Below, one piece after another: positions 31,984-33,345 of a stretch of DNA of 64,000 bases (its first letter is position 1; each line of letters begins with the position of its first letter). This DNA is from an uncultured SAR86 cluster bacterium (GTDB lineage Bacteria > Pseudomonadota > Gammaproteobacteria > Magnimaribacterales > D2472): positions 20,903-84,902 of the forward strand of contig CACBQK010000004.1 in assembly GCA_902541365.1 (NCBI GenBank). Direction: 5' to 3'. The notes beneath the pieces were generated by a model. It had not been told where the DNA came from and made no database searches. It was given only the letters and a program-made list of their open reading frames with translations. The position numbers and the translations under genes are program-made.

Positions 31984-33345
31984 ATGCCAACTCAATCAAT
32001 GGAACAATTAGTATCTTTGTGTAAGAGAAGAGGGTTTATTTTTCAAACAAATGAAATTTATGGTGGCCTTCAAGGCGTTTATGATTATGGGCCTTTGGGA
32101 GTAGAGTTAAAAGAAAATCTTAAGAAGGCTTGGTGGACAGCAATGGTCTATTCAAGAGACGATGTAGAAGGTTTAGATGCATCGATACTTACCAACAAAA
32201 AGGTTCTGAAATATTCAGGCCACGAGGATACTTTTACGGATCCTCTAGTTGATTGCAAAGATTGTAAGAATCGCATGAGAGCAGATCATATAAAAGATAG
32301 TAAGTGCTTACATTGTGGTTCAACAAACCTTACTGAACCAAGGCCCTTCAATTTAATGTTTAGAACAAATATAGGCCCCGTTAGTGACAATGATTCTTAT
32401 GCATATTTAAGACCTGAGACAGCGCAACAAATATTTACTAACTTCAAAAATGTCGTTGACTCAACATCAAAATCTATACCTTTTGGAATAGCACAAATAG
32501 GTAAAGCTTTTAGAAATGAAATAACTCCGAGGAACTTTATATTTAGAGTAAGAGAGTTTGAGCAGATGGAGTTAGAGTTCTTTGTTAAGAAAGGTGAAGA
32601 TGAAGATTGGCACAAGTATTGGATTAAGGAAAGAATAAATTGGTGGGTCCAACAAGGTGTAGAAAAAGATAAAATTAAGGTTTTGAATGTTCCACAAGAA
32701 GAACTATCGCACTACTCTAAAGCAACAATAGATTTAATGTATGAATTCCCTCACGGTGTTGAGGAGCTGGAAGGGATTGCAAATAGAACTGATTTTGATC
32801 TTGGTTCACATTCAAAAAATCAAGAAGATCTAGATATAACAGCTGATGTCCTTGAGAATAAAGATTCAAACGCCAGACTTGCTGTTCAAAATATTGATTC
32901 AAAAAAATGGGAAGTGCCATATGTAATTGAGCCATCTGCAGGTGTTGATAGAGGTGTGCTTGCCATATTAAATGAATCATATAAGGAGGAAATACTTGAA
33001 AATGGTAAAAACAGAGTTGTATTAGCTTTAAAACCTCACCTCTCACCAATTAAAGCTGCCGTTATACCCATTAAAAAGAATGATTCGACAATTGTTGACT
33101 TTTCAAAGAAAATTAAGGATAACCTCCAAAAACTTGGCCTTGGCAGGGTTGTTTTGGAAAATACAGGTAATATTGGTAAAAGTTATCGCAAACACGACGA
33201 AATTGGCACCCCAATTTGTATAACTATTGATTTTGAAACACTTGAAGACAGCACAGTTACTGTCAGAGACAGGGATACAATGGAACAAAAAAGGGTAAAA
33301 GTTGAGACTTTAGACAACCTTATGAGAAACTTGTTAGAAAAGTAG
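31984..33345 (+). CDS. glyS: Glycine--tRNA ligase, single-chain homodimeric (alpha2) type
   Basis: [52 protein letters not shown] and C-terminal anticodon domain; 453 aa. Confidence 0.95.

Follow-up and report, generated by a model that had tools for sequence, protein, structure and literature searches.

The glycyl-tRNA synthetase (GlyRS) encoded in the window, i.e., the whole stretch of 64,000 nucleotides from a SAR86 cluster bacterium that was analyzed here, is of the dimeric (alpha2, class IIa) type, and its gene has very probably displaced the genes of the heterotetrameric enzyme (glyQ and glyS, together glyQS) in place, before the four families of the order Magnimaribacterales diverged. 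The displacement is ancient, dating to the base of the order or earlier, and is not specific to the host genome. The three observations by which displacement in situ is recognized were all made, namely a slot with conserved flanks, the absence of the displaced genes, and a gene phylogeny that conflicts with the organismal one.

The GlyRS gene and its locus

The gene (31984..33345, plus strand) is a single, intact open reading frame in the ORF list of the window, starts with ATG, and encodes a protein of 453 amino acids. The full-length score of the product exceeds both curated family cut-offs, with 589 bits for NF003211 (cut-off, 312) and 459 bits for TIGR00389 glyS_dimeric (cut-off, 243). Pfam locates the class II core (PF00587, tRNA-synt_2b) at residues 134-330 and the anticodon-binding domain (PF03129, HGTP_anticodon) at residues 357-448 of the same chain. 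On one side, def, fmt, trkA, and trkH (26767..31051, plus strand) form a flank that is kept across the order, followed by an LpxL/HtrB-like gene of the lipid A acyltransferase family (31055..31912, minus strand; PF03279, 111 bits; NCBIfam matches under their cut-offs), which is divergent from the GlyRS gene and occupies the same position in most genomes of the order. On the other side, a gene for a plsC-like 1-acylglycerol-3-phosphate acyltransferase (33348..34061, plus strand; PF01553, 73 bits) starts 2 bases past the GlyRS stop codon. The cluster is flanked by gyrB (34081..36006, minus strand; TIGR01059, 969 bits), which is followed by recF, dnaN, and dnaA (35987..39480, minus strand), an origin-proximal core cluster that was kept across the compared loci and served as a synteny anchor. 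ORF, HMM scores, and neighbors hence agree with the first-pass annotation, which had described a 453-aa class IIa GlyRS between an LpxL-like gene and plsC, near gyrB. The base composition of the GlyRS gene (GC, 35.3%; GC3, 27.3%) matches that of its neighbors and of the genome (34.1%), which fits an old event.

The spacing of 2 bases fits a co-transcription of the GlyRS and plsC-like genes, as does the junction between them, where a terminator-like site was looked for and none was found; both genes are probably transcribed together, as glyQS was. A sigma-70-like hexamer pair (TTGAAA-18-AATAAT; 31878..31907, plus strand), located ~77 nt 5' of the GlyRS start, is a candidate promoter and to be taken as a lead only; in a promoter scan of the region, the count of sigma-70-like sites around the GlyRS gene was no higher than in shuffles.

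The adjacent gyrB gene differs within the order. GyrB of the window (34081-36006, minus strand), a short form of 641 aa, lacks an insertion of ~165 residues, as do the proteins of the window's family (f1) and of family f4, whereas the insertion is present in families f2 and f3 and in all other sampled Pseudomonadota (frames of 799-890 aa); loci L025, L026, and L174-L193 were included in this comparison. In Escherichia coli, the insertion matters for gyrase function, which makes it noteworthy that part of the order has lost it.

Absence of glyQ and glyS

That glyQ is missing from the host genome, as the first-pass annotation had presumed, was borne out by two kinds of searches. HMMs for glyQ (PF02091) and glyS (PF02092) had no match in the assembly (G000; 1.02 Mb), and glyQ, glyS, and gmhB queries from a related genome gave no tblastn match in it at E<=1e-3. 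The genes for the dimeric GlyRS, plsC, and the LpxL-like protein were each present there in a single copy according to tblastn, and the GlyRS of the window was the only one detected. Since this assembly is 90.7% complete, the argument leans on the relatives. The order comprises four families and more than 250 species, with genomes of 0.7-1.8 Mb and ~34% GC. Not one of 40 relatives, sampled from all four families, had glyQ over the cut-off, and a survey in which the control genomes behaved correctly found glyQ in 0 of 251 sampled order genomes (4 families, 22 genera), some of which are single contigs with a completeness of 92-97%. The dimeric GlyRS was present in 41/41 order genomes tested, one-contig genomes included; mapping across the clade, as had been proposed with the initial reading of the locus, hence established an order-wide distribution.

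The class as a whole presents a different picture. In a family-balanced sample of 300 genomes, glyQ was present in 277, and the dimeric gene scored over the cut-off in 16, every one of which lacked glyQ. Four genomes that carry an unpublished flag (G077, G163, G311, and G321) were counted in the glyQ tally and enter no other result. Across the phylum, only 4 of 401 genomes in a species-weighted sample had the dimeric type. It is conceivable from the state of the host assembly (34 contigs, 90.7% complete) that the dimeric enzyme is a redundant or specialized extra copy and that glyQS sits in the unassembled part of the genome, but the consistent lack of glyQ in the 251 order genomes, several of them single contigs at 92-97% completeness, and the strictly complementary pattern in the class (16/16) render this explanation extremely improbable. 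The dimeric GlyRS is regarded as the sole GlyRS of the host. One glyQ-positive genome of 5.3 Mb in 410 contigs (G090) contains a sub-cut-off match to the dimeric GlyRS (240 bits) with stop codons (C172:3645-5024), which may be a contamination or a decaying second copy.

Exchange at the native locus

The ancestral arrangement can be seen in G186, G220, and G056, class genomes that are assembled in one contig or in long ones and in which dnaA-dnaN-recF-gyrB is followed on the opposite strand by plsC, a HAD phosphatase gene (gmhB-like), glyS, and glyQ. Among a further 20 class genomes from outside the order, taken from the top of the glyQ match list irrespective of context, 18 have a co-oriented glyQ-glyS-(gmhB)-plsC cluster, and in 5 of the 20 this cluster adjoins the dnaA/gyrB cluster, as it does in the three genomes named above. 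The gyrB flank of the window is thus likewise present in glyQS-bearing genomes.

In the order, 26 loci were compared: 20 from order genomes, those of G033, G026, and the window, those of L032 and L038, two order-like MAGs in which the synteny is complete, and that of G040 (the same contig record as L032). All 26, representing all four families, carry the dimeric gene in the glyQ-glyS slot and in the same orientation, with the general layout gyrB / plsC, in some families gmhB, GlyRS / LpxL-like / trkH trkA fmt def. In family f2, gmhB is located directly downstream of the GlyRS gene in 5/5 loci, and in f3 this holds for 5 of the 6 loci read, among them all four f3 loci of the 20 order genomes; the sixth, G026, has a gap of 0.5 kb at this place that may or may not contain gmhB. 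The cluster of these two families reads GlyRS-gmhB-plsC, so that exactly glyQ-glyS has been exchanged. In the window's family gmhB is gone, and in two of its genomes plsC is gone from the locus as well; f4 has lost both genes from the locus. The plsC-like protein of the window is 34-37% identical to the plsC products encoded downstream of glyS/gmhB in glyQS-bearing genomes, and its gene appears to be the last member of the old glyQ-glyS-gmhB-plsC cluster. Remnants of glyQ or glyS were not detected at the examined order loci.

With glyQS clusters in 18/20 class genomes and the dimeric gene in the corresponding slot at 26/26 order loci, the displacement at the native locus that the first-pass annotation had proposed is well founded. 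The gene order that it had given for Pseudomonas held in part: the side of gyrB, plsC, gmhB, glyS, and glyQ is also found in other genomes of the class, whereas the three gyrB-adjacent glyQS genomes lack the far side, with htrB-like, trkA, fmt, and def beyond glyQ. In the glyQS-bearing genome G199, the far-side synteny is partial, with trkH 8.7 kb upstream of glyQ.

A pair of the dimeric GlyRS gene and gmhB was observed away from gyrB and plsC in G208 of family f172 (L027:7767-9685) and in a gammaproteobacterial MAG (L034:4476-6337). Because gmhB is still directly downstream of the GlyRS gene, this suggests that the two loci are descendants of the same in-place event that were rearranged later. 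The alternative is that the foreign gene landed elsewhere in the genome, that glyQS was deleted separately, and that the gene came to its present position by a later rearrangement or because the origin-proximal region is prone to insertions. Such a course could be read from the unrelated contexts in which other Gammaproteobacteria (G156, G136, G193, and G255) hold a GlyRS of this kind, and from the position away from gyrB in G208 and L034, but the latter retain precisely the pair with gmhB, which suggests rearrangement after the in-place event. Moreover, slot, strand, and the immediate adjacency to gmhB-plsC are constant over all four families, and a chance landing in the exact vacated slot is improbable. 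We consider this alternative unlikely and the displacement in place far better in accord with the loci compared.

Phylogeny and origin of the gene

The host is a gammaproteobacterium, as the displacement reading had assumed, according to both its taxonomic kinship and the GyrB tree, which places the order inside the class (support, 99) with G208 as its sister (86). In the maximum-likelihood GlyRS tree of 56 sequences, all sequences of the order fall into one clade (97/95) together with those of G208, L033, and L035. This clade is nested in a larger one (100/99) of mostly small-genome Gamma- and Alphaproteobacteria, which also contains one Thermaceae, one Elusimicrobia, and one Spirochaetes MAG and has a sister group of Anaeromyxobacter, Chloroflexota, and Capsulimonadaceae. 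The GlyRS lineage of the window is foreign to the class, as it belongs to a clade of mixed phyla and glyQ is found in 277/300 class genomes. Since the branching within the order's GlyRS clade is mostly without resolution, the vertical descent of the gene within the order rests on synteny.

A homologue search with the window GlyRS returned 120 matches with 71-91% identity, and among 1.84 billion representatives clustered at 50% identity there was one cluster at 62%, followed by matches of <=54% from many phyla, the next representatives being at 50-54%. A donor lineage, which the first-pass annotation had proposed to seek by phylogeny, could not be named: no donor phylum was identifiable from raw similarity or from the 56-sequence tree, and none of the closest relatives outside the order, which are found in other contexts, was a donor with matching flanks.

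Two of the sequences in the order's clade come from alpha-labelled marine single-cell genomes of 1.1 and 1.5 Mb (AG-430-P03, L033:6001-7356, and AG-891-P20, L035:6001-7359), and their presence suggests an inter-class transfer of the gene among ocean plankton. The order may itself have been the source for co-occurring marine Alphaproteobacteria and for f172, or an alphaproteobacterium may have been the source for the order. Both L033 and L035 lack glyQ, their GlyRS proteins are 70-71% identical to that of the window and lie inside the 97/95 clade, and the GyrB tree groups their genomes, together with that of L036, with the non-gamma Pseudomonadota (100); in addition, the GlyRS of G208 nests with f3 sequences (99/97). 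Against this, the AU test did not reject a tree with all gammaproteobacterial sequences together and the alphaproteobacterial pair outside (p = 0.354), and single-cell assemblies can include foreign contigs. An exchange of this kind, in either direction, is considered possible but less likely, and acquisition no later than the base of the order remains the preferred reading.

A further gammaproteobacterial holder of the dimeric type is Candidatus Rickettsiella (G156). The GlyRS of Candidatus Rickettsiella isopodorum (WP_071662964.1) belongs to the same 100/99 clade, and its genome likewise lacks glyQ, but the gene lies in an unrelated genomic context outside the gyrB/plsC slot and likely represents a separate displacement. 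One may speculate that a compact, Thermus-type GlyRS changed hosts several times among bacterioplankton with small genomes and intracellular Pseudomonadota that are unrelated to one another, and ousted glyQS each time; the order studied here, SAR11-like or other marine Alphaproteobacteria, and Rickettsiella-like lineages would then be tentative candidates for its recipients.

Enzyme type and tRNA substrate

The best relative of the window GlyRS with a solved structure is the alpha2 GlyRS of Thermus thermophilus (PDB 1ATI, 600 bits; also 1B76 and 1GGM), with which it aligns end to end. The window protein is ~50 residues shorter, its host is a mesophilic gammaproteobacterium, and a short CxxC...CxxC segment, common in bacterial dimeric GlyRS, takes the place of the Thermus insertion (approximately residues 93-158). 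Residues E145, E196, E316, R177, and R323, which are invariant in an alignment of 37 dimeric GlyRS, correspond to E188, E239, E359, R220, and R366 of the Thermus enzyme, and S318 pairs with Thermus S361 in the pairwise alignment. These Thermus residues reportedly belong to the glycine pocket and to motifs 2 and 3 (Arnez et al., 1999). With the residue roles assigned in this way, the arginines of motifs 2 and 3 and the acidic glycine pocket are conserved in the window GlyRS. The enzyme is presumably active and a homodimer.

The tRNA-Gly(GCC) of the host has U73, G1-C72, C2-G71, and G3-C70, which, together with C35 and C36, are the identity elements of bacterial tRNA-Gly (PMC3990555). The heterotetrameric GlyQ/GlyS (alpha2beta2) shares with the dimeric enzyme its function, the U73 tRNA substrate, the chromosomal slot, and the operon partners gmhB and plsC, but its architecture (PF02091 and PF02092, neither matched in the host genome) is unrelated. 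The Thermus enzyme is, like the window GlyRS, paired with a U73 tRNA-Gly, and charges both U73 and A73 substrates (PMC3990555), which explains how an enzyme of this type could take over without a change in the tRNA. The 453-aa protein, presumably as a homodimer, would activate glycine in the conserved acidic pocket, its HGTP anticodon-binding domain should read C35/C36, and it would charge the unchanged bacterial tRNA-Gly (U73, G1-C72, C2-G71, G3-C70). The GCC gene (contig C13, 4044-4119, minus strand) is the sole tRNA-Gly gene among the 30 tRNA genes of the assembly; a UCC isoacceptor is probably missing because the genome is incomplete.

Proposed route and genome compactness

The following route is proposed from the sequence comparisons. 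A gene for a Thermus-type alpha2 GlyRS would have been acquired horizontally no later than the base of the order and inserted within the glyQS operon or next to it, where suitable expression would have been ensured. The redundant 3 kb of glyQS would then have been lost, followed later by the loss of gmhB and, in some lineages, of plsC from the locus, and the dimeric gene would since have been inherited in the glyQ-glyS slot of the cluster beside gyrB. This order of events is deduced, because a genome with both types of GlyRS was found neither in the order nor among its nearest sampled kin.

In an Elusimicrobia MAG from groundwater that belongs to the same GlyRS clade (L037:3975-7389), short glyQ-like and glyS-like remnants are located ~0.8 kb from the dimeric GlyRS gene, with 32% identity over 189 aa and 26% over 193 aa, respectively. 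This locus represents the transitional state of a half-finished displacement.

The exchange of glyQS for the dimeric gene saves ~1.6 kb, and compactness or streamlining is a plausible driver of the swap. The genomes with the dimeric type in the class sample have sizes of 0.8-2.5 Mb; a link to genome size is opposed by symbionts of 0.3-0.4 Mb that keep glyQ and by f229 genomes of 3.5-3.9 Mb that carry the dimeric type.

Precedents and significance

Two unrelated types of GlyRS exist, and some bacteria are known to have received the alpha2 type by transfer (10.1101/2021.08.20.456953; PMC3990555). The term displacement in situ, as applied to operons, follows the definition of Omelchenko et al. 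(2003, Genome Biol 4:R55), cited here after PMC4481853. In such mosaic operons, an acquired gene likewise replaces a resident gene of the same function with the flanks left intact; in contrast, two genes of a heterotetramer have here given way to one non-orthologous gene for a homodimer. A specific description of this GlyRS swap in SAR86 or Gammaproteobacteria was not found in the literature.

The case reveals neither a new mechanism nor a new enzyme. It is a very clean case from nature in which an essential enzyme of translation was swapped for an unrelated one with the operon undisturbed, and two families (f2 and f3) still display the exact two-genes-for-one exchange. The swap extends over an entire order of bacteria that are abundant in the ocean, for which glyQ and glyS are unusable as a universal gammaproteobacterial marker. 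The position of the dimeric GlyRS gene can serve as a simple character, akin to a synapomorphy, of the order and perhaps also of f172. If the repeated transfer considered above were true, the compact GlyRS would be a "short allele" of an essential function that recurs and may be under selection, and not a one-off accident.
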